From contig JAUYMN010000008.1 in assembly GCA_030699455.1 (NCBI GenBank), positions 6,271 to 70,270 of the forward strand: DNA of 64,000 bases, written 5' to 3'. The number at the start of each line of letters is the position of its first letter. The stretch's first letter is position 1. Source of the stretch: Nanobdellota archaeon (GTDB taxonomy: Archaea > Nanobdellota > Nanobdellia > SCGC-AAA011-G17 > UBA489). Made by a program: the position numbers and the translations under genes. The notes under the pieces are model-generated. The model was not told the DNA's origin. It saw only the letters and a program-made list of their open reading frames with translations, and ran no database searches. Shown here in pieces: positions 2,092 to 39,389 of the stretch.

Positions 2092-2802
2092 TTAAGTTAG
2101 CGTCTGGTATAACGTCAGGGCTATTTTTTCAGGAGAAACAATTTTCGGTCTTTTGCCTTGTTTAATCTCTTCTTCATAAAAATCAATTCGTTCTTCAATC
2201 ATTGGAGTTCTTGTAAGGTTTGGTGAAACAACTTTAATCTCAATTTCTCTTGATTTCCAGTAATCTGTTTTTTCTTGGACATATTTCTCTAACAATCCTT
2301 TTGATAAACAATAATCTTCTAAAAATGGGTGATGTTTTCCTGCTAAAACTGAACCAGTTAAAACAATCTTTCCTTTTATTCCATCATTATGCATTTTCTC
2401 TCCAATTCTTTCTATAAGAAACACAGGACAATAATAATTTACTTTCATTGTTGCTTCTTTTTCTTCTTCTGTTAGACCTTTTTTGTAAACTCTTAATCCA
2501 GCATTGTATACAAAAACCTCAGGCGTTCCGAATTCTTTTAGTATTGATTCTAAACTTTTCCAATACAACTCATAGTCTAAAGAATTAAATATTAAACAAT
2601 CAATTTCAAAACTAGGGTTTTCCGATTTGATACTTCTGACTAGTCTTCTTGCACCTTCTTGGCTTTTGTAATAAGTAAACAAAACTGAGAAGTCCTTTTG
2701 TTTTGCTAATCTTTCAACAAGACAAGTCCCAATACCTTTAATTGAGGGGTTTTTATGTGAATAACTTCCCGCACCAATTACTAAAACTCTTTTGTTTTCC
2801 AT
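2092..2802 (-). CDS. short-chain dehydrogenase/reductase family protein
   Basis: N-terminal glycine-rich Rossmann motif (VIGAGS) and YxxxK (YCLSK). Last gene of a 3-gene operon. Confidence 0.75.
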   Translation of the reverse strand: MENKRVLVIGAGSYSHKNPSIKGIGTCLVERLAKQKDFSVLFTYYKSQEGARRLVRSIKSENPSFEIDCLIFNSLDYELYWKSLESILKEFGTPEVFVYNAGLRVYKKGLTEEEKEATMKVNYYCPVFLIERIGEKMHNDGIKGKIVLTGSVLAGKHHPFLEDYCLSKGLLEKYVQEKTDYWKSREIEIKVVSPNLTRTPMIEERIDFYEEEIKQGKRPKIVSPEKIALTLYQTLT

Positions 2803-2810
2803 ATTGTCCC

Positions 2811-3449
2811 CTATAAAGAATTATTTTGAGAATTTGAAACATAATCTGAAAGAGAATTGTGTATTTTAGTTCCGTAGAGCATTTTAAGTTTTTCTAATTG
2901 TTTATCCTGTGGCCAGTAAAGGCTTGCTGTGCAATCGGCTATAATTTCTGTTGGGATTCCAATTCCTCTTTCTTCTGCCCTCATAGCAATAGCATCTATA
3001 CACACATCAGTAAAGAAGCCAACCAAAACAAGACTTGAAGCTGTTCTCTGAACATATTCTCTAAATTGTGTATCAGAAAAAGCGTCTAAACCTCCTTTAG
3101 TAAAAACTGGTTCTTCTCCAATAGGTTTAATTCTATAAAAGTCAGTGCTATTAGTTCCATCTTTCAAAAACTCTTGTTCATACATTTCCTTATATCTTTC
3201 AAATCTAGATGGAGATAAATATTGGGGATCTCCTACTCCTCTAACATAAGCAATTGGAAAACTTTCTTCTCTAAAATGAGCAATTGCACTTTCAATATTA
3301 TCCACAACCTTATCTATACTTTTGACAGATAATTTACCATCTCCAAAAAAACCTTCAGGATTACAGGTTAATTTGTTCATTGCGAAAAAACCATCTGGAT
3401 GACAAAATTCATTTTGAACATCAACTACAAGAATGGTTTTTTGTTTCAT
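2811..3449 (-). CDS. isochorismatase-family cysteine hydrolase
   Basis: ILVVDVQNEF at the N-terminus and FFTDVCIDA with a candidate catalytic Cys. Confidence 0.8.
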   Translation of the reverse strand: MKQKTILVVDVQNEFCHPDGFFAMNKLTCNPEGFFGDGKLSVKSIDKVVDNIESAIAHFREESFPIAYVRGVGDPQYLSPSRFERYKEMYEQEFLKDGTNSTDFYRIKPIGEEPVFTKGGLDAFSDTQFREYVQRTASSLVLVGFFTDVCIDAIAMRAEERGIGIPTEIIADCTASLYWPQDKQLEKLKMLYGTKIHNSLSDYVSNSQNNSL

Positions 3450-4393
3450 TTTCTTCTCTCCTCTACAAATTCCTTTAAAGAATCAACTTTAAACTGCTCA
3501 CCCATCCAAGTAGAATAAAGATTGCCATTTGGCATTATTACTAAATAAGGCAATTCTTCTGCCTTTTCCCTTCCTATCTCTAATTGAGAAGTATAAAAAG
3601 GAAAACCTGTTTTTGTTTCAAAAGCAAGTTCATTTTTTTCCCTACCTTGAAAATTGGCTCTCTGTCCAGTCTGAATTGCTCCGCTTTCTCTTAATCTTTC
3701 TATAACTGGTTTTAATGGAACAAAGTTAAAATCTATATATTCCAGATGACCTCTTATCGCTTCATTATTGGAATCAACATTATAAACTCTAAATAATTCT
3801 CTTAAATATACGTCCTTTGCCCCACACTCTTGAGCAAAATCAAGGTATCTTAAAACATCATCTGTAGTTTCAAGTCCACCTTTTTGCAAGGTTGCACAAA
3901 GTCTTAATGGCATACCTATATCAGACAGATGCTTACCAATAACGCGCGGATTTCCTGTATCTATTCCAAAAATTCTATTATTTTTTTCAGAATCATAATG
4001 ATGTGTACTTAAGTTGACATAATGCAAGCCACTTTGTTTTAATTTTTGGGCTAGTGTTTCCCCATCAGATTCTTTTAACAATCTAGAACCATTAGTATAC
4101 ATGGCTATCAAATCCCAATCAGGATATTTTGATAACTCTTCTAATGTAGAAGTTACTCTGCTCAGCCTAAGAGTAGGCTCTCCGCCAGTGATTATAACTT
4201 TTCTTCCGCCCAAATCATGGTATTCACTAATATAATCAGCAACCCCTCTAGTAAAAGGATCTTGCTCTCCTGTAGGCATTTTCCATGTAATTTCTTGAAT
4301 GCACATTTGGCATCTCGCATTACACTCCGAATTTACCATTACGTCTATTTGCTCTGGCACGGTTGATTTCTTCTCTTCCATGTTGTATCTCAT
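3446..4393 (-). CDS. radical SAM protein
   Basis: CNARCQMC (CxxxCxxC) and GGEPTL. ATGA overlap with the downstream hydrolase gene. Confidence 0.85.
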   Translation of the reverse strand: MRYNMEEKKSTVPEQIDVMVNSECNARCQMCIQEITWKMPTGEQDPFTRGVADYISEYHDLGGRKVIITGGEPTLRLSRVTSTLEELSKYPDWDLIAMYTNGSRLLKESDGETLAQKLKQSGLHYVNLSTHHYDSEKNNRIFGIDTGNPRVIGKHLSDIGMPLRLCATLQKGGLETTDDVLRYLDFAQECGAKDVYLRELFRVYNVDSNNEAIRGHLEYIDFNFVPLKPVIERLRESGAIQTGQRANFQGREKNELAFETKTGFPFYTSQLEIGREKAEELPYLVIMPNGNLYSTWMGEQFKVDSLKEFVEERRK

Positions 4394-4489: not shown

Positions 4490-5233
4490 ATGGACACGGA
4501 AACACTAGAAAAAATTGGTTTGACTAAAAATGAGAGTATTGTATACCTAACTTTAGTTAAATCTGGAACAATAAAAACAGCAGAGATTCTCAAGAAATCG
4601 GGACTAAACTCAGGGAGAATTTATGACACCTTGGAATCGTTGAAGCATAAGGGATTAATCTCAGAATCTAATATCAATGGCGTAAAGCACTTTACTGCTT
4701 CGCCACCAAATCAATTAAAGAATTATTTTCAACAAAGATTAAACCAACTAAAACAAGAAGAACCTATAATTGAGAAAGCCATACCTCAATTAAACCTTAT
4801 CAGAAATACATCAATTGAAAGTTCAAGAGCTACAATTTACACAGGGCTAAGAGGATTAAAAACCGCTGTTGATGAAGCATTTGAAAAGGTAGGGAAAGAT
4901 GAAGAAATTTTAGCGATGGGCGTTACCTCATTAAAAGATGAAAAGATAAACCAATTTTGGGTAAATTGGTCACCAAAAAGAATAAACAAAAAACTTGTTG
5001 CAAAGCATTTGTTTTCTGAAAAAAGTGAATTCTATGACGAATTTAAGAAAATGAAATATACAGAAGCAAAATTTTTGGAAGGTATTACTCCTGTAACAGT
5101 TGATATATTTGGAACTAAAACAATTTTAATTATGAATTACAAAGAGCCAATTTCTTGCATTTTGATTCAGGACGAAAATACTGTTCAATCTTTTAGGCAA
5201 TTTTTCTATCAGTTATGGAAAATTGCAAAATAA
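4490..5233 (+). CDS. TrmB-family transcriptional regulator (paralog 1 of 3)
   Basis: N-terminal wHTH LEKIGLTKNESIVYLTLVKSG...GRIYDTLESLKHKGLI. C-terminal domain shared with ORFs 20854 and 22440. Confidence 0.8.
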   Translation: MDTETLEKIGLTKNESIVYLTLVKSGTIKTAEILKKSGLNSGRIYDTLESLKHKGLISESNINGVKHFTASPPNQLKNYFQQRLNQLKQEEPIIEKAIPQLNLIRNTSIESSRATIYTGLRGLKTAVDEAFEKVGKDEEILAMGVTSLKDEKINQFWVNWSPKRINKKLVAKHLFSEKSEFYDEFKKMKYTEAKFLEGITPVTVDIFGTKTILIMNYKEPISCILIQDENTVQSFRQFFYQLWKIAK

Positions 5234-5323
5234 ATTTCTTGCGTAGCAAGACTATCTGTCCTAAAGGAACGCGGGCAACTTCTCCTATCAAGGGCGGGTG
5301 GTTGGGGGACTGAAGGTACTTAC

Positions 5324-5386
5324 AATTACGCTTAATTGTTGTTATACACCCTTCGAAGAGGGTCGAAGCGACCAACGAGAGTGGAG
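5324..5386 (+). repeat. junction-core repeat, variant type (AATTACGCYTAA..TT-GTTATAC)
   Basis: aattacgcttaattgttGTTATACaccc is nearly identical to 22233-22262. Followed by gaagcgacc, an iteron-like sequence. Confidence 0.6.
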
Positions 5387-5404
5387 AAGTTTGGGGCAGA
5401 GATA

Positions 5405-5413
5405 TTTATAAAG
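5405..5413 (+). promoter_or_regulatory. TATA box (TTTATAAAG)
   Basis: About 27 nt upstream of the ATG at 5436, immediately after the left arm of the inverted repeat at 5390-5399. Confidence 0.45.
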
Positions 5414-5435
5414 CCTATTTATATTAATCTAATCT

Positions 5436-5564
5436 ATGAACAAAAAAGGTGAAACGTGGAAAATGATTTTAATTGTGATTATCTTTCTAATAATTTTAAT
5501 ATGGATGCTACTTACTGGTTTCTTTAGCGATCCACTTGGGTGGTTTAGGAATTTAGCACAATAA
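5436..5564 (+). CDS. small membrane protein (42 aa)
   Basis: MNKKGETWKMILIVIIFLIILIWMLLTGFF... has one TM helix. It has its own TATA box and is bracketed by the 10-bp inverted repeat 5390-5399/5565-5574. Confidence 0.35.
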   Translation: MNKKGETWKMILIVIIFLIILIWMLLTGFFSDPLGWFRNLAQ

Positions 5565-5573
5565 CTGCCCCAA

Positions 5574-5672
5574 ATTGCACATAAGCCCTGTTAAACTCTC
5601 CCGTTAGGGATTGAATTTTAGTGCAATGTTCCGTAGCGAAGCGGAGGAAAAATTCAAAGTAAAAAAATCGGC
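5574..5672 (+). repeat. junction-core repeat with conserved hairpin
   Basis: attgcacataagccctGTTAAACtctcccgttaggga, then stem ttgaatttt (5611-5619) / aaaattcaa (5649-5657). The loop begins agtgcaa, as in copy 30615-30722. Confidence 0.65.
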
Positions 5673-5723
5673 GTATCAAGGGCGTAACCCCATTGGTTAA
5701 AAGAATATTGGGTTTGGGTTATA

Positions 5724-5732
5724 TATATAAAG
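5724..5732 (+). promoter_or_regulatory. TATA box (TATATAAAG)
   Basis: About 26 nt upstream of the ATG at 5754; overlaps a GTTATAT motif at 5718-5724. Confidence 0.45.
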
Positions 5733-5753
5733 AATCAATTAAACCTCTAAAAT

Positions 5754-6278
5754 ATGTATACAGAACAAGAACTAAGAGTATTGAATGACTGTGGTAAAGA
5801 ACAGACTAAGATTCAAACATACTTAGATTCTATTCCATTTGATGGAAGAGTATATGATACTGGAGAATATGAAGCTAGATCATTTAGAAAAACTGTTAAA
5901 GATGGGCAAGGATTATGTCTATGTGCTGCATTAACCGCTGCCCACATCTTAGAGTATAATGGACAAGAGCCTTTATTACTTGATATTTGGAGTAGGCCTC
6001 TTGAGCATACAGTTGCGATTTATCAAAATGGAAAGGTTGGTTCTTTGGGGAAAAGTAGACAAGATGGCGCCGGAGGACAACCTTCAACTTTTGATTCTGT
6101 GGAAGAAGTAGCTCAATATTATGCTAATTTTTTTAGAGGTATAGGTTGGGAAGTTGAAGCTTTCGGAGTAATTGATTTATCAAAAATTGATGATATTGAT
6201 TGGAGATTTGAATTAAGAAATTTGGATGAATTGGGAATTTGTCAAAGAATAAATAAATTTCCACATTACAAAATATAA
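5754..6278 (+). CDS. hypothetical protein, possible Cys/His hydrolase fold
   Basis: 174 aa with GQGLCLCAALTAAHILE and a downstream EHTVAIY, a weak transglutaminase/papain-like pattern. Bracketed by nested inverted repeats. Confidence 0.5.
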   Translation: MYTEQELRVLNDCGKEQTKIQTYLDSIPFDGRVYDTGEYEARSFRKTVKDGQGLCLCAALTAAHILEYNGQEPLLLDIWSRPLEHTVAIYQNGKVGSLGKSRQDGAGGQPSTFDSVEEVAQYYANFFRGIGWEVEAFGVIDLSKIDDIDWRFELRNLDELGICQRINKFPHYKI

Positions 6279-6506
6279 TCCAAACCCTTTCTATATTTAG
6301 CCGATTTTTTTATTGAGTTTAATCCTTTTTATGAAAATAACTTAATAATTTGGGGTATTATTGTCTGAAATCATGAAATATGTCATAAACAGTTTTTTTG
6401 TATTCTTTGATTAGTAGTATTTATGCATTACTTATCTAGCTAACAAATCTTAGAAAGGCTTAAATATAAGATATACAGTATATATTCTATATTAATGGGG
6501 GTTAAT

Positions 6507-6638
6507 ATGTTTGAAGCTAGTTGTAATGGATGCGAAGCGGTTTATAGTATTGAGGACAGCAGTATGCCTCAGTCTTTTAAGTGCTTATGTGGTTCAGAAA
6601 AGTTCAGTGTCAAAGAAAATACATTAGTTGTTGCTTAA
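6507..6638 (+). CDS. small zinc-ribbon protein (43 aa)
   Basis: CNGC...CLC cysteine pairs. Below the ORF-track size cutoff. Confidence 0.3.
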   Translation: MFEASCNGCEAVYSIEDSSMPQSFKCLCGSEKFSVKENTLVVA

Positions 6639-6644
6639 ATCTTG

Positions 6645-7475
6645 TTATATTATTAGTATAATCAGATATGCTAGTAGGCACCCCGCCGTTATAAATGGCA
6701 TCGCCGGATAAAACTTATTCTTTTTACCGATATACATAAGATAAAATAATGCGCCTGCTGTGAAGAATGGAATTAAATATGCTAAATTTCCGTAGGTCTT
6801 CATTACCACCCCTGCAAATATTAATGGAAGCCCAATATCTCCACCCCCTAAAATTGCAAACTTGTTTTTTGAATATGGAATCATAATTCCAGGAAAAATA
6901 TTCAGTTTTGTGTGTGACTTTGCCATTTTTACCATATGTTTTGTTTTGTTGACAGCAATATAATCATATATTGAAATTATTATTAAAAAAATTGTAATGC
7001 TAGCCAAATTCATGATTGGAACAAATACTGCAGCAAGCCCGCCATAAATAAATAATTCGCTTATGTTTTGTGTTACTACATTGTTTTTGAATATTTTTGC
7101 ATATGATAATACTATTGATAAGATAATTGCTAGTTGACTTGATAAAAATGCTGCAAATGATATTAATAAACAGAAAACGACTGATAAAAAGAACCAAGCT
7201 TTCCATAACCATTGCACATTGAATTTTATTATTAATAAAATAAAAAAAGTAACTAACAATACCATAATCAACATTGGGATGTATGAAGTACCTTCTTCAA
7301 GATCTGGTCTTTCTATATCATATGGGAGGTCATTGTATTCTATTTCTTTTACTTCCTTACCATCTATTGTTTTTGTTTTTTCAATTGAATAAGAATCAAC
7401 TATAAATAATCCAATAAACTGTGATAAGATAAAAATTGTCAATAAAATTGCAGTAATCTTTGCTGAGTGTTTCAT
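6645..7475 (-). CDS. presenilin/signal-peptide-peptidase-like intramembrane aspartyl protease
   Basis: Polytopic membrane protein with YD (SIYDYIAV) and GxGD-like (LGGGDIGLP) motifs, as in the A22 family. Confidence 0.65.
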   Translation of the reverse strand: MKHSAKITAILLTIFILSQFIGLFIVDSYSIEKTKTIDGKEVKEIEYNDLPYDIERPDLEEGTSYIPMLIMVLLVTFFILLIIKFNVQWLWKAWFFLSVVFCLLISFAAFLSSQLAIILSIVLSYAKIFKNNVVTQNISELFIYGGLAAVFVPIMNLASITIFLIIISIYDYIAVNKTKHMVKMAKSHTKLNIFPGIMIPYSKNKFAILGGGDIGLPLIFAGVVMKTYGNLAYLIPFFTAGALFYLMYIGKKNKFYPAMPFITAGCLLAYLIILII

Positions 7476-7659: not shown

Positions 7660-10600
7660 ATGACTGCCCAAGACAGAAGAATCGCCTACATGGATAAAGC
7701 ACACGACAAAAAGGAGATAGATAGAGTTCTAAATCCATTTGTTAAAAAATGGTTTTTTTCAAAATTTAAGGATTTTTCATTGCCACAGACTTATGCAGTT
7801 AAAGAAATTCACGACAGAAATAATATATTAGTTTCAGCCCCCACTGGTGGAACCAAGACACTAACTGCTTTCTTAAGCATACTAAATGAGCTTGTTAATC
7901 TCTCAATGTCAAACTCTTTGGAAGATAGGGTTTATGCAGTTTATATTTCTCCATTAAAAGCATTGAACAATGATATTCACAGAAATTTAGAAGAGCCATT
8001 GAATGAGATAAAAGAACTGGCTAGAAAAGAAGGTGTTGATTTGAATATTAGGATTGCAACCAGAACAGGTGATACCACACCTAGTGAAAGGCAAAAGATG
8101 TTAAGGAAGCCACCACATATATTGATTACAACGCCAGAATCGTTAGCCCTCATGCTTGGAAGCCTAAAATTTAAGGAATTAATGTTTGATGTTAACTGGT
8201 GCATAATTGATGAGATTCATGCATTGGCTGACAACAAAAGGGGCGTTCATATGGCTTTAAGCCTTGAAAGGCTGAATGTTCAGTCTCCAAACTTAACAAG
8301 AATTGGATTGAGTGCTACCGTCGAACCAATAGAGGAAGTTGCTAGATTTTTAGTTGGTAGTGGAAGAAACTGCAAAATAGCAAAAGTTGGTTTTGTTAAG
8401 AAGTTTGATCTGAAAGTTCTTAGCCCAATAAAAGATTTCTTTGATGTTACAGCTGAAAAGATGCAAAATAAATTGTATGATTTATTGGATAAACTAATAC
8501 AAGAACATAAGACTACATTAATATTTACCAATACTCGCGCAGGAACTGAAAGAGTGGTTCATCATCTGAAGGAAAGGTATCCATCTAATTATAGTGAGAA
8601 TATTGGCGCACATCATGGAAGTTTAAGCAAGAAATATAGAACAAATATAGAAAAAAGACTGAAAGAAGGTAAACTAAAAACAGTTGTTTGCTCCACAAGT
8701 TTGGAGTTGGGTATAGATATTGGTTATATTGACTTGGTTATTTGTTTGGGCAGTCCAAAGGGTGTTGCAAGGTTTCTTCAGAGATGTTTGCCTTATGAAT
8801 CAAGGGTCTTGCTTGCCGATGGCACTTATAAGGAAATTGGCGAGATTGTTGAAAAAAAGTTAGATGTTGAAATACTTTCATATGATATAAAAAAATGCAG
8901 GTTTGTTAGCAACAAAATTTCAAAATATCACAAAAATAAATCAAAAAATTTTTTAGAAATAAAGTTACATTCCGGGTCTAAAATCAGATGCACAGAGGAG
9001 CACCCCATTTTAACAAGAGATGGTTGGAAAAAATCAAAAAATCTTAAGAAAGGAGAGGATATAGCTGAAATTTTTGATTTTAAATATGATGACACCCCAT
9101 ATATTTACGAATTAATAAACAATAAGGATTTTTATGTGGAAAATAAGGAAGATTTTATTAAAGAATGTGTTGATAAATACATCATAGATAATAAAATTTC
9201 TTATTCTAAATTCGCCAAACTCATGGGGATAAATCAGAATAAATTACAGGATATTATGAGGAAAAAAGGAAGAAGAAAAAGCATTAGGCTTGATTTGTTC
9301 ATAAAAATAATGAATCTTTGCAATGTTCATAAAAATACCTATCATCCCTGCCTTAAGGGATTGAAGAGCCAGTCCCATCATAGAAAATTGTTGTCTTTAA
9401 AACCGGATAAAGCGCTAATGTGGCTGGCAGGCATAGTCGCCTCAGATGGGTGCATTACCAAACACAAAAAAACAGGAGAATACAAAATAAAGATTGGAAA
9501 CAAAGATTTGAATATATTAAAAAAATGTCAGTCTATTTTTAATAAGTATGGATTTTATCAAAAAATCAATACAAGAAAAAGAGATGGGATTATGTCTATT
9601 GAATGCGGATCTAAAATTTTATCCCAGATATTTATTTCTTTTGGCATAAAAACAAAAAATAAATCAATCGATTTGGAAGTTTCTAATGTTTTGTATAAGA
9701 TGCCAAAAAATCTTGTTATACCATTTATTGAAGGAGTTTTAGAGGGAGATGGCAATGTCTCACAGGATAGAATAAGAATTTTTTCTGCTAGTAGCAAGTT
9801 TATTTCAGGTTTGCATAACCTCCTTAACAGGCATGGAGTTCATAATTATTTTTGTGAGCAGGAGGCAAAAGTATCAAAAATTGTTCCAAAAATTAATTTT
9901 AAAAATATATATTGTCTTTATGTTTCAAGAAAAAGGCACCTGAGAAAATTCCTAAAATATTGTATTTTTAATGAAAAAAAAGTTAAATCTTTAAGAAGCT
10001 CTGTCGATTACCATTATAAATCAGATAAGGATATTGAAAAAAATATTCATTGGACAAAAATAAAGTCAATTAATTATGCCAAACACAATGGATACGCATA
10101 TAACTTAACTTTGGAAAATGAGCCCAACGATTATTTTGTTGAGAGTATCTTAACCCATAACTGTGGTAGATCGGGACACAAAATGCATGAAACAGTTAAA
10201 GGTAGATTAGTTGTTATGGACAGGGATGATTTGGTTGAGTGCAGTGTTTTATTAAAAAATGCAATGGATAAAAAAATTGACAGAATTGATATCCCAATGA
10301 ACTGTTTAGATGTTTTGGCTCAACAGATACATGGCATGGCCTGTACCGAAGTATGGGACAAGTGGAAGATGTATGAGACTATAAAAAAAAGTTATTGCTA
10401 TAGCAGTTTAACCATAAGTGATTTTGAAGAGATTCTTGATTATCTTGCCGGCAGTTTTGCAAGGCTTGAAGAAAGATATGTCTATGCAAAAATATGGTAT
10501 GATCCGGAAACAAATCAGATTGGAAAGAAAGGCAGGATGGGAAGGGTAATCCATATGACAAATATAGGAACTATTCCTGACACTACAAATGTCAAAGTTA

Positions 10601-11658
10601 AAATCAATGATGTGACTATTGGAACTATTGATGAAGGATTTTTAGAGAAATTGAAAAAAGGAGATATATTTGTTTTAGGTGGAAATACTTATGAATTTAG
10701 ATTTAGCCGTGGAACTGTCGCACAGGTGGTTGCTTCTATTGGTAAAAAGCCAACTGTTCCATCATGGTATTCTGAAATGTTGCCATTAAGCTATGATTTA
10801 GCCTCAAGCATCGGAAAATTCAGGAGGTATATGCTCGATTTGTTTGCCAACAAAAAAAGTAAGGAAGAAATAATTAATTATATTCATGAATACTTGTATG
10901 TCGATGAAAATTCTTCAAATGCCATTTACGAATATTTTTTAGAACAATTTTTATATGCCGATATACCACATGACAAAAAAATTATCGTTGAGTTTTATAA
11001 CTCTGGCGCAAAAGACGAGAAAAAATATTATGTGTTCCATTCACTTTTTGGAAGAAGAGTTAATGATGTTTTATCAAGAGCCATCGCATTTGCTGCTTCA
11101 AAGATACATCAAAGAGATATAGAGGTGGGGATTAATGATAATGGGTTTTATCTGGCCTGTCCACAGGATAGAAATATCAATGTGATGAAAGCAATAGAAT
11201 TGATTAATGTCAAGAATTTTGAAGATGTCATGAAGCAATCCATTGATGGCAGTGAGGTTTTAAAAAGAAGATTTAGGCATTGTGCAGGCAGAAGCATGAT
11301 GATACTTAGGAATTACAAAGATAACAGAAAGAGTGTTGGAAGACAACAAGTAAGCAGCATGATACTTATGAATGCTGTAAAGAGAATCAGCAATGATTTT
11401 TGCATATTAAAAGAAGCAAGAAGGGAAGTTCTGGAAGATTTAATGGATCAGAACAATGCAAAAGAGATTTTAAAAGAAATTAAATCTAAAGCAATATCCA
11501 TAGAAAAAATTGATACTAAAATTCCAAGCCCGTTTGCCTTTAATTTAGTTACTCAGGGCTATAATGATATCCTAAGAATGGAAGACAAAATCGAGTTCAT
11601 ACGAAGAATGCATCAGATGGTTTTGGCAAAAATTGGAAAATCCCACAAGATGGAGTGA
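7660..11658 (+). CDS. lhr: Lhr-type large ATP-dependent helicase, intein-containing
   Basis: Walker A APTGGTKT, DEIH, SAT, and a long Lhr-like C-terminal region. Motif VI (QR..GRSGH) is split by an intein. Confidence 0.9.
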   Translation: MTAQDRRIAYMDKAHDKKEIDRVLNPFVKKWFFSKFKDFSLPQTYAVKEIHDRNNILVSAPTGGTKTLTAFLSILNELVNLSMSNSLEDRVYAVYISPLKALNNDIHRNLEEPLNEIKELARKEGVDLNIRIATRTGDTTPSERQKMLRKPPHILITTPESLALMLGSLKFKELMFDVNWCIIDEIHALADNKRGVHMALSLERLNVQSPNLTRIGLSATVEPIEEVARFLVGSGRNCKIAKVGFVKKFDLKVLSPIKDFFDVTAEKMQNKLYDLLDKLIQEHKTTLIFTNTRAGTERVVHHLKERYPSNYSENIGAHHGSLSKKYRTNIEKRLKEGKLKTVVCSTSLELGIDIGYIDLVICLGSPKGVARFLQRCLPYESRVLLADGTYKEIGEIVEKKLDVEILSYDIKKCRFVSNKISKYHKNKSKNFLEIKLHSGSKIRCTEEHPILTRDGWKKSKNLKKGEDIAEIFDFKYDDTPYIYELINNKDFYVENKEDFIKECVDKYIIDNKISYSKFAKLMGINQNKLQDIMRKKGRRKSIRLDLFIKIMNLCNVHKNTYHPCLKGLKSQSHHRKLLSLKPDKALMWLAGIVASDGCITKHKKTGEYKIKIGNKDLNILKKCQSIFNKYGFYQKINTRKRDGIMSIECGSKILSQIFISFGIKTKNKSIDLEVSNVLYKMPKNLVIPFIEGVLEGDGNVSQDRIRIFSASSKFISGLHNLLNRHGVHNYFCEQEAKVSKIVPKINFKNIYCLYVSRKRHLRKFLKYCIFNEKKVKSLRSSVDYHYKSDKDIEKNIHWTKIKSINYAKHNGYAYNLTLENEPNDYFVESILTHNCGRSGHKMHETVKGRLVVMDRDDLVECSVLLKNAMDKKIDRIDIPMNCLDVLAQQIHGMACTEVWDKWKMYETIKKSYCYSSLTISDFEEILDYLAGSFARLEERYVYAKIWYDPETNQIGKKGRMGRVIHMTNIGTIPDTTNVKVKINDVTIGTIDEGFLEKLKKGDIFVLGGNTYEFRFSRGTVAQVVASIGKKPTVPSWYSEMLPLSYDLASSIGKFRRYMLDLFANKKSKEEIINYIHEYLYVDENSSNAIYEYFLEQFLYADIPHDKKIIVEFYNSGAKDEKKYYVFHSLFGRRVNDVLSRAIAFAASKIHQRDIEVGINDNGFYLACPQDRNINVMKAIELINVKNFEDVMKQSIDGSEVLKRRFRHCAGRSMMILRNYKDNRKSVGRQQVSSMILMNAVKRISNDFCILKEARREVLEDLMDQNNAKEILKEIKSKAISIEKIDTKIPSPFAFNLVTQGYNDILRMEDKIEFIRRMHQMVLAKIGKSHKME
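8785..10161 (+). other. intein (459 aa) with LAGLIDADG homing-endonuclease domain
   Basis: Starts with Cys (CLPYESRVLLADG) right after FLQR. Ends THN, followed by the +1 Cys of CGRSGH. Two LAGLIDADG motifs (WLAGIVASDGC, FIEGVLEGDGN). In frame with the host ORF. Confidence 0.85.
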
Positions 11659-22190: not shown

Positions 22191-22207
22191 GGGGGGGGGG
22201 GGGGGGG
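22191..22207 (+). repeat. G17 homopolymer
   Basis: 17 consecutive G in an AT-rich genome, directly after the right inverted-repeat arm 22175-22188. Confidence 0.9.
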
Positions 22208-22232
22208 TTGGTAGGGAGAAGAGTGACCTTCT

Positions 22233-22378
22233 GAATTACGCCTAACCCTTGTTATACAAGGGTGAGGAGCGAAGCGACGAAAGCGTAGCGTCCCCAAGTG
22301 AGCGAAGCGAACGCAGCGTAAGGCACAGGGACACGTTCCATCAAGTGAGCACAGCGAACCATCCAGAACAAGAATCAA
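22233..22378 (+). repeat. junction-core repeat (variant) plus GC-rich iteron block
   Basis: gaattacgcctaacccttGTTATACaagggt places GTTATAC in the loop of a 6-bp stem. Two 17-mers follow: aagtgagcgaagcgaac (22296-22312) and aagtgagcacagcgaac (22343-22359). Confidence 0.65.
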
Positions 22379-26385: not shown

Positions 26386-26459
26386 TTGTGCCATCAGAAA
26401 TTGTACATAACTTCTGCTATATTGTCTGGGGTTTATCCCCAGATTAACCCGTTAGGGTT
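26384..26459 (+). repeat. right arm of the hicBA cassette plus degenerate junction core
   Basis: aattgtgccatcagaaa is the inverted partner of 25904-25921. Then ttgtacataacttctGCTATAT, hairpin tctgggg/ccccaga (26425-26443), and aacccGTTAgggtt. Confidence 0.6.
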
Positions 26460-39332: not shown

Positions 39333-39389
39333 AAATGGACTGATTTTTGTCGTTTTTTTTTAAAATGGACTGATTTTTGTCGTTTTTTT
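39333..39389 (+). terminator. tandem duplicated T-rich element (2 x about 30 nt)
   Basis: aaatggactgatttttgtcgttttttt occurs at 39333 and again at 39363, each ending in a T-run typical of archaeal terminators. Confidence 0.4.

Follow-up and report, generated by a model that had tools for sequence, protein, structure and literature searches.

What is the DNA at 5.23–6.42 kb of the window, between the gene of a TrmB-family regulator and that of a Zn-ribbon protein, and by what route did it arrive there? The window, i.e., the whole 64,000-nt stretch analyzed here, corresponds to positions 6271–70270 of contig C24 of an archaeal metagenome-assembled genome (MAG; 770 kb, 28 contigs, 34% G+C). It contains an archaeal large-subunit rRNA and an RNase P RNA, and close homologs of its genes carry the label Candidatus Woesearchaeota. 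The region is probably a recombinase-less array of the same gene-cassette system as the main island, a cassette array at 20–31 kb of the window. The first-pass annotation, made from the window alone, had described it as a second, smaller copy of the island's architecture, and a covariance model (CM) together with a position weight matrix (PWM) recovered the same family, strand, and clamp geometry. Additionally, the 5.2–6.3 kb region is not syntenically conserved, and formal similarity to the 20–31 kb units was found.

Membership in the island's family is most apparent in a junction unit at 5574–5663 (to 5672) of the + strand. The CM was trained on eight units (seven of them on other contigs, the eighth in the main island), with 5574 left out, and was run over the whole window without filters. 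Its best match in the window was 5574–5663 (77.1 bits, E 2.2e-14), in agreement with the full junction unit annotated at 5574–5672, and all matches with E<0.1 were family members on the + strand. A whole-window repeat search placed 5574–5600 in one direct-repeat family with 20735, 25760, 25841, 26400, 30157, and 30616, again all on the + strand. The unit starts with a 28-bp core (5574–5601, ATTGCACATAA-GCCCTG-TTAAACTCTCC) that scores 32.0 bits with a PWM of the core trained without it. Cores of at least 18 bits number 21 on 7 contigs of the real genome versus 0–1 in each of five second-order Markov genomes. The core consensus, ATTGnAyATAA-N6-TTATnn..., has the 11-6-11 geometry of an Xer/dif site: copies agree in the left arm ATTGnAyATAA and, correctly spaced from it, in the inner right-arm bases TTAT. 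Conservation does not extend to the outer half of the right arm, which is not complementary to the left arm and usually pairs with downstream bases (at 26400, TCTGGGG-ttta-CCCCAGA). At 5574, this right-arm hairpin is CCC-gtta-GGG (5598–5608), and it is followed by the stem TTGAATTTT/AAAATTCAA around the conserved TAGTGCAAYGTTCC. The stem around the invariant TAGTGCAAYGTTCC belongs to the long-form units, and 9 of its 12 pairs are changed on both sides across copies. Pairing of the ATTGCAC left arm with a downstream GTGCAAT was also considered and was rejected as a conserved helix, as it shows no covariation across units. The window's unit is 85% identical to C23:1661–1751 of its own genome. 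The units number 12 in this genome and none in eight same-genus genomes, and they are present in 12 more distant genomes.

Upstream of the junction unit lies a variant dif-like core (5325–5352, + strand; ATTACGCTTAA-TTGTTG-TTATACACCCT) with a GC-rich mini-hairpin tail to ~5383. It scores 19.2 PWM bits and reaches E 0.028 with the CM (5325–5400), and the alignment of its region (5292–5375) to 22198–22281 beats 300 of 300 shuffles. The variant core reported at 5324–5347 is thus real, but its description as almost identical to the main-island counterpart was overstated, since the core proper is identical at 20 of 25 positions. A 9-bp repeat (5277–5285/5383–5391) brackets the variant core, and its left copy travels with the TrmB module in locus L088.

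Private inverted repeats, here called clamps, flank the genes of this system, 139–627 nt apart. Among 16 cassettes of the window's own genome, each bounded by successive cores, the two ends of a cassette are far more complementary to each other than are the ends of different cassettes (mean 23.4 vs 15.4; Mann-Whitney p 2e-7). The left arm begins directly after the junction's ...AG, 63–86 nt from the core start, in 9/11 cassettes; the last base of the right arm is the first A of the following core. Both cassettes of the region obey this rule. Cassette 1 (5390–5574, + strand) is held by the clamp TTTGGGGCAG/CTGCCCCAAA at 5390–5399/5565–5574, which matches at 10/10 positions as annotated, widens to 23 nt at 74%, and terminates on the first base of core 5574. 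It encloses the TATA box that had been assigned to this cassette (5405–5412) and a 42-aa open reading frame (ORF) at 5436–5564. Cassette 2 (5660–6312, + strand) has the nested clamps that had been recognized around a 174-aa ORF (5754–6278). The outer pair TAAAAAAATCGGC/GCCGATTTTTTTA (5660–5672/6300–6312) is complementary at 13/13 positions and the inner pair GGGTTTGG/CCAAACCC (5710–5717/6280–6287) at 8/8, the latter within a 33-nt pair of 73%. Between the two left arms stands a GTATCAAG-hairpin motif (5673–5693), a TATA box follows at 5720–5732, and the right clamp ends in a T7 run. In both cassettes the TATA box lies ~28 nt before the ATG, which, given the usual archaeal promoter spacing, implies leaderless transcripts.

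As a separate observation, several cassettes carry, immediately internal to their left clamp, the motif (T)ATCAAG with a GC mini-hairpin behind it (often of the GCGAAGC type with a GAA loop), and the TrmB module has this combination at its right end (window 5286–5296, 5674–5684, and ~22340; C4:4408; C23). GCGAAGC-like mini-hairpins are frequent throughout the junction tails.

The cargo of the two cassettes differs in how far it can be assigned. The 42-aa ORF would encode a peptide predicted to have a single helix and a single transmembrane segment. Homologs of this ORF and of a 71-aa ORF at the far end of the insertion described below were not detected in the own genome or in the fetched loci, so the coding status of the 42-aa ORF is putative. 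For the 174-aa protein, an exact look-up and a single-sequence Pfam search gave no match, and a 1.8-billion-protein library yielded a family of 162 proteins. A 30-homolog profile matched the CPR-C4 structures PDB 7ob6/7pjo at E 1.1e-53 and vasohibins (tubulin carboxypeptidases) at ~1e-9. Residues C55 and H85 are invariant, and 11/30 members match Pfam Vasohibin. The product is predicted from these profiles to be a CPR-C4/vasohibin-like cysteine protease. One homolog of 44% identity lies on an unrelated 1.2-kb contig without cassette features.

The array ends in a site that links it to a recombinase gene. The first-pass annotation stopped at 6311, and beyond that point lie a terminal hybrid site (6312–6339, + strand; ATTGAGTTTAA-TCCTTT-TTATGAAAATA; 11-6-11) and an 82-nt remnant of the upstream region of a XerA paralog (6340–6421, + strand), the gene itself being absent. 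The site is of another class than the cores (3.4 PWM bits); its left arm comes from cassette 2 and its spacer and right arm are of the recombinase-proximal (attI-like) class. Window 6312–6420 is 91% identical to C28:1109–1222 of the same genome, 186 nt upstream of an intact recombinase gene. The homology ends at 6421, and the native promoter of the Zn-ribbon gene resumes at ~6447. The window array therefore corresponds to a complete array minus its recombinase gene. On C28, a junction unit and a clamped cassette precede the proximal sequence of the intact gene (C28:1295–2110), which encodes a 271-aa tyrosine recombinase, XerA2. The protein reaches 223.3 bits with NF040815 recomb_XerA_Arch (cut-off 220), compared with 259.7 for the canonical XerA (C14:10560–11429), to which it is 38% identical.

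XerA2 is a distinct recombinase whose gene is repeatedly associated with these sites. In a survey of 201 genomes of the order, orthologs (48–64% identity) separate from the canonical XerA class (35–44%) and occur in ~65 genomes, often at contig ends. A site of the form ATT[GTA]N4TAA[CT] lies 125–235 nt before the XerA2 start codon in 15 of the 26 loci with enough upstream sequence (~2 expected; binomial p 6e-11), for example ATTGAGTTTAACTCTTTTTATG at -177 in G066. This proximal site is analogous to attI in position and unrelated to it in sequence. On C28 and in G025 and G035, junction units precede XerA2 in the same orientation as the gene; in G035, 4 cores and 3 cassettes separate XerA2 from a core gene. 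Units and XerA2 also tend to occur together in the 37 relatives that were scored for both (10/2/5/20; Fisher p 4e-4). The cores keep a single orientation regardless of gene orientation, and it is the same as that of the recombinase gene, which is easier to reconcile with a DNA site than with a transcript signal. In two genera, XerA2 stands beside RtcB and archease at a conserved chromosomal position (C28:1295–5685 of this genome; L087 of G020), which suggests a long-resident primary array. The RtcB of this genome is split by an intein.

Comparison with other genomes places the switches of similarity in the core spacer. A DNA search with 6300–6425 against 200 genomes returned only short AT-rich matches and pointed to loci in G066, G112, and G046. 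The last two (loci L045 and L046) represent other families of the order, both with XerA2, and each contains a cassette with the end modules of cassette 2. The common 5' module consists of the right arm TTAAACTCTCC, the hairpin, the structured element, TAAAAAAATCGGC, the GTATCAAG-hairpin, and GGGTTTGG; the common 3' module consists of CCCAAACC...TTTAGCCGATTTTTTT and then the left arm ATTGAGTTTAA. The payload in G112 and G046 is an unrelated 225-aa ORF, and Pfam gave no match for the cargo of the related cassettes. On the left, the window shows no relationship to G046 through the left arm and spacer (ATTGCACATAA-GCCC vs ATTGAAACTAA-TCGG), and from TGTTAAACTCTCC on the two are near-identical. On the right, identity among the three genomes extends through ATTGAGTTTAA and is lost in the spacer, and the window equals its own C28 from CCTTT-TTATGA onward, the C28 left arm being different (ATTGAATATAA). 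The switches at both junctions make 6312 a hybrid site and the interval from spacer to spacer the transferable unit. Such spacer-level switches are expected if strands are exchanged at the edges of the central region in a Xer-type site. Since all copies agree in the innermost bases of the core, each switch is placed only between about positions 11 and 17. Although the source is a MAG, the compared copies differ from one another (76–91% identity), which makes chimeric assembly across repeats an unlikely cause.

The end modules have also been joined to other genes. Between cassettes with common end modules, the payload breakpoints fall at the inner repeat (5710–5719/6279–6287; GGGTTTGG/CCAAACCC). 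The genome's own cassette at C26:42955–43848 has a 5' module 85% identical to window 5612–5718, a promoter like that of the G112/G046 cassette, and a third, 125-aa gene. In place of cores it has the 29-bp direct repeat TCTGCAGTATTAGATnTnCCGTAA on either side, as might follow from integration at a secondary site.

The array is part of a larger strain-specific insertion of ~4.65 kb (~1.8–6.44 kb) in a slot that is hypervariable across the genus. The slot lies between a NAC gene (1435–1767, - strand; Pfam NAC E 1.4e-13), which is syntenic with the Zn-ribbon gene in 7/8 same-genus genomes (G001–G008; in G005, NAC has a different context), and the native right flank (6447–7475). This flank holds the Zn-ribbon promoter and ORF (6495–6638, + strand) and a signal-peptide peptidase gene (6645–7475, - strand), an adjacency conserved family-wide. 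The distance from NAC to the Zn-ribbon start is 133–135 nt in G004 and G006, where the slot is empty, 360 nt in G001, 536 nt in G003, 706–738 nt in G002, G007, and G008, and 4728 nt here. The inserted genes of the window are absent from all eight genomes, in which the slot holds a NUDIX hydrolase (G003), related 171/176-aa ORFs (G007, G008), or a 172-aa ORF (G002); recognizable cores were found in none of these four insertions. In G001, ~260 bp within the slot (L021, 6055–6325) are bracketed by the 11-nt direct repeat TTATTGTGCAA and may be a remnant of another insertion.

The distal part of the insertion is largely a mobile module. The first gene of the insertion is a lipoprotein-like orphan ORF of 71 aa (1799–2014, - strand; TATA region 2015–2050). 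Next come an SDR/isochorismatase/radical-SAM operon (2092–4393, - strand) and the divergent TrmB-family regulator (4490–5233, + strand; E 3.9e-15). The Pfam scores are 55.9 bits for TrmB (cut-off 25.6), 49.7 for Radical_SAM (29.5), 81.4 for Isochorismatase, and 72.6 for adh_short. TrmB and the radical-SAM enzyme are 85–88% identical to those of the distant Woesearchaeota loci L038/L039 (TrmB 87–88%), whereas the aminoacyl-tRNA synthetases, proteasome subunit, Cdc6, and other housekeeping proteins of those loci are 33–57% identical to those of the window genome. The radical-SAM enzyme, which some sources annotate as MoaA-like, is 83–94% identical to copies in other contexts, and operon orthologs were found in none of 24 relatives. 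Between this TrmB and its two main-island paralogs, identity is only 25–27%. The module has different neighbors in each genome (L038–L043, L088, L089), and SDR is not always included. DNA homology to L038 (2120–5236, 79%) ends at the gene ends, and the closer L088 runs ~65–75 nt past the TrmB stop and diverges at ~5300. These comparisons clearly point to horizontal acquisition of the TrmB–radical-SAM block.

The suggestion that the radical-SAM operon and TrmB are a large payload is thus upheld in substance, though on other evidence than that proposed. The absence from the slot in the eight same-genus genomes and the contrast between 85–88% and 33–57% identity speak for it, but the proposed core boundary does not stand, as the degenerate core at 2030–2056 scores -2.4 PWM bits, a chance value, and overlaps the TATA region of the 71-aa ORF. 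The module is accompanied by a 3' flank (5234–5300, + strand) comprising a mini-hairpin (CTTGC-gta-GCAAG, 5238–5250), AACTTCTCC (5277–5285), and TATCAAGGGCG (5286–5296), which is found again at 5674–5684. The sequence after the TrmB stop (gcgtagcaagac, 5241–5252), which had been likened to the right arm of a main-island unit, does form a 5-bp mini-hairpin like that preceding core 25841, but it is not followed by a core (best PWM -9.5). No inverted repeat was detected around the whole module (1768–2100 vs 5230–5400; 205/300 shuffles score as well). A 16/18 match between 1775–1792 and 6319–6334 was marginal (13/300 shuffles) and overlaps the NAC TATA box, and it was not used.

From these patterns we infer a system in which XerA2 is the catalyst, cassettes pass through circular intermediates, and the arrays may continue to be active. 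A cassette would extend between the spacers of two successive 28-bp cores. It would comprise, in order, the right arm with its short hairpin, a ~50-nt element with TAGTGCAAYGTTCC in the covarying stem, the left repeat, promoter and gene, the right repeat, and the next left arm. In the circularized form, the private repeats would pair into a stem enclosing a single complete core, with ...GCCGATTTTTTT-ATTGAGTTTAA-spacer-TTAAACTCTCC... as the expected joint. XerA2, intact on C28 beside its own array, would exchange strands in the 6-nt spacer, and cassettes would be inserted at the recombinase-proximal site and stacked upstream of its gene. The array here is ordered as variant core, 42-aa peptide cassette, junction, protease cassette, and hybrid terminal site. 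It has retained the proximal site and 82 nt of upstream sequence and lost the recombinase gene, so further movement would need XerA2 in trans. Within the ~4.65-kb insertion, the array forms the proximal end, with the TrmB/radical-SAM/isochorismatase/SDR module and the small lipoprotein gene as the distal part.

Several observations weigh against this explanation. Because its right arm is degenerate and usually engaged in a hairpin, the core is no plain symmetric dif. The variant core at 5325 is without the structured element of the junction, and the sequence before it (TTGTAAGTACCTTCAGT) has no partner anywhere in the window. Single-strand folding of 5545–5725 is no better than that of shuffles on either strand (z -0.5, 0.05). 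No dif-like cores were found around the TrmB module, either here or in five other genomes. The single-crossover model does not explain the payload swap at the inner repeat. Furthermore, the similarity between the main island's two lipoprotein cassettes starts only at ~+78 of the preceding core, which does not fit simple inheritance from spacer to spacer. Finally, recombination is drawn from comparative patterns rather than observed.

A first alternative is that the region is an inert relic, in which a ~4.65-kb block arrived once, by way of an integrative element or by homologous recombination into a hot spot, and the cores are dead scars. We regard this as unlikely. The missing recombinase gene and the incomplete variant core are in line with decay, and the left 3.5 kb is without flanking cores. 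The slots of G002, G003, G007, and G008, with their unrelated single genes and no cores, indicate a hot spot independent of these sites. Against decay, few copies in the genome are as well preserved as the core and junction at 5574, cassette 2 has two perfect clamps, and an intact XerA2 is encoded in the same genome. This alternative concerns present activity, not origin, and is compatible with the explanation as a cassette array.

A role at the RNA level is less probable again, and we give it little credence. The junction would then be a structured RNA or a processing or termination signal, and the private repeats would be processing stems like those around archaeal rRNAs. The covariation in 9 of the 12 stem pairs is accompanied by several single changes that are G-U-compatible on the + strand, some clamp mismatches are G:T on the same strand, and the T7 run at the right clamp of cassette 2 is a typical archaeal termination signal. 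However, the units have one orientation and the genes face both ways, so they are not all sense-strand signals. The units are tied to the recombinase gene by position, orientation, and presence or absence, and the switches map to the spacer of an 11-6-11 site. A search of Rfam at gathering thresholds gave no match within 5.2–6.4 kb, and the folding energy is unexceptional. An RNA role could in any case coexist with the DNA role.

It is very unlikely that the array is an ordinary integron fragment, namely a cluster of attC sites lacking integron-integrases (CALIN) whose junction units are attC sites served by IntI. Archaeal integrons and CALINs have been published, some of them in Nanoarchaeota (Ghaly et al. 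2022, PMC9668308). The arrays resemble integrons in several ways: a tyrosine recombinase gene lies beside a putatively dedicated proximal site, and small, mostly uncharacterized genes (with toxin-antitoxin pairs in the main island) are stacked with structured sites between them that have private stems and conserved core positions. Recombinase-less arrays and a patchy distribution are likewise known from integrons, including sedentary chromosomal ones, and from CALINs, and GTTAAAC in the core fits the R' consensus GTTRRRY. Nonetheless, XerA2 falls below the IntI cut-offs (TIGR02249, 197 bits vs 265; NF011946/PRK15417, 117 bits vs 435). It matches the IntI models in two pieces that skip profile positions ~179–247, the IntI-specific additional domain. 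The private repeats here enclose the gene, and the core is enclosed only after circularization, whereas attC repeats form a 57–141-nt palindrome 3' of the gene (R''-L''...L'-R'). The switch lies in the 6-nt spacer between the 11-nt arms of a dif-like core, not at G|TT at a hairpin edge. The cassettes have their own TATA boxes and occur in both orientations in the main island, and the array is upstream of and co-oriented with the recombinase gene. The system is thus not an integron, as it fails on the integrase domain and on attC topology.

A transposon or MITE-like (miniature inverted-repeat transposable element) origin, with the clamps as terminal inverted repeats and the junction unit as the preferred target of a transposase, is barely credible: the repeats do begin with TTY..., end with ...RAA, and hold a fixed position relative to the junction, but they differ in every cassette and would be unrecognizable to a sequence-specific transposase, target-site duplications are absent, the linked gene encodes a tyrosine recombinase and no transposase gene is present, and similarity to foreign copies runs past the repeats into half-cores.

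Among known systems, Xer sites resemble the core in form. Archaeal XerA/dif serves chromosome dimer resolution, and its site of 28 bp has 11-nt arms and a 6-nt spacer (PMC2958812, PMC8371274). The cassette system shares with Xer/dif, and with the integrative mobile elements exploiting Xer (IMEX), a recombinase of the XerA family, a 28-bp core with an apparent 11-6-11 layout, and what appears to be spacer exchange. It differs in having ~21 sites instead of one at the terminus, a dedicated second XerA paralog, sites that bound accessory genes, and a degenerate right arm folded in a hairpin and followed by a conserved structured element. In the pdif modules of Acinetobacter, XerC/XerD sites flank discrete plasmid gene modules (PMC11705084). 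Those modules likewise include regulators and toxin-antitoxin pairs, carry multiple dif-like sites, and are shuffled between replicons. In published descriptions, pdif sites alternate in orientation around each module, whereas the cores here are all direct repeats on the + strand, are chromosomal with syntenic flanks, and are linked to a dedicated paralog. The pdif modules are plasmid-borne, rely on the two housekeeping Xer proteins of the host, and are without a dedicated recombinase, a proximal site, or private clamps.

An Xer-type cassette system of this kind is apparently undescribed so far; we found no account of such arrays in DPANN archaea in a literature search of incomplete coverage. 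The genomes of DPANN archaea are tiny and their bearers host-dependent, and the routes by which they acquire and shed accessory genes are poorly understood. The broader proposal is that Woesearchaeales-type DPANN archaea capture cassettes independently of integrons through a XerA paralog and spacer exchange. In it, end modules would be reused with gene swaps at the inner repeat, recombinase-less arrays would be served in trans, and the NAC/Zn-ribbon slot would be one among several secondary landing places; we consider the chances of this whole scheme evenly balanced. The locus provides a clean equivalent of a CALIN, with the proximal site kept and the recombinase lost, and placing the exchange point in the core spacer turns a resemblance into a testable mechanism. 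The array also adjoins a regulator and radical-SAM module that has moved between distant lineages, in a genus-wide hypervariable slot. If the proposal is true, Xer-family enzymes were recruited at least twice for gene-cassette platforms, as IntI in bacteria and as XerA2 here, and the conserved cores and end modules would offer a handle for mining mobile genes in uncultured archaea.

Two further features of the window lie outside the array. A Lhr-type helicase gene (7660–11658; 1332 aa in total) carries an in-frame intein-like insertion with a homing-endonuclease part. At 39333–39389, the 27-nt sequence AAATGGACTGATTTTTGTCGTTTTTTT is repeated exactly at 30-nt spacing.

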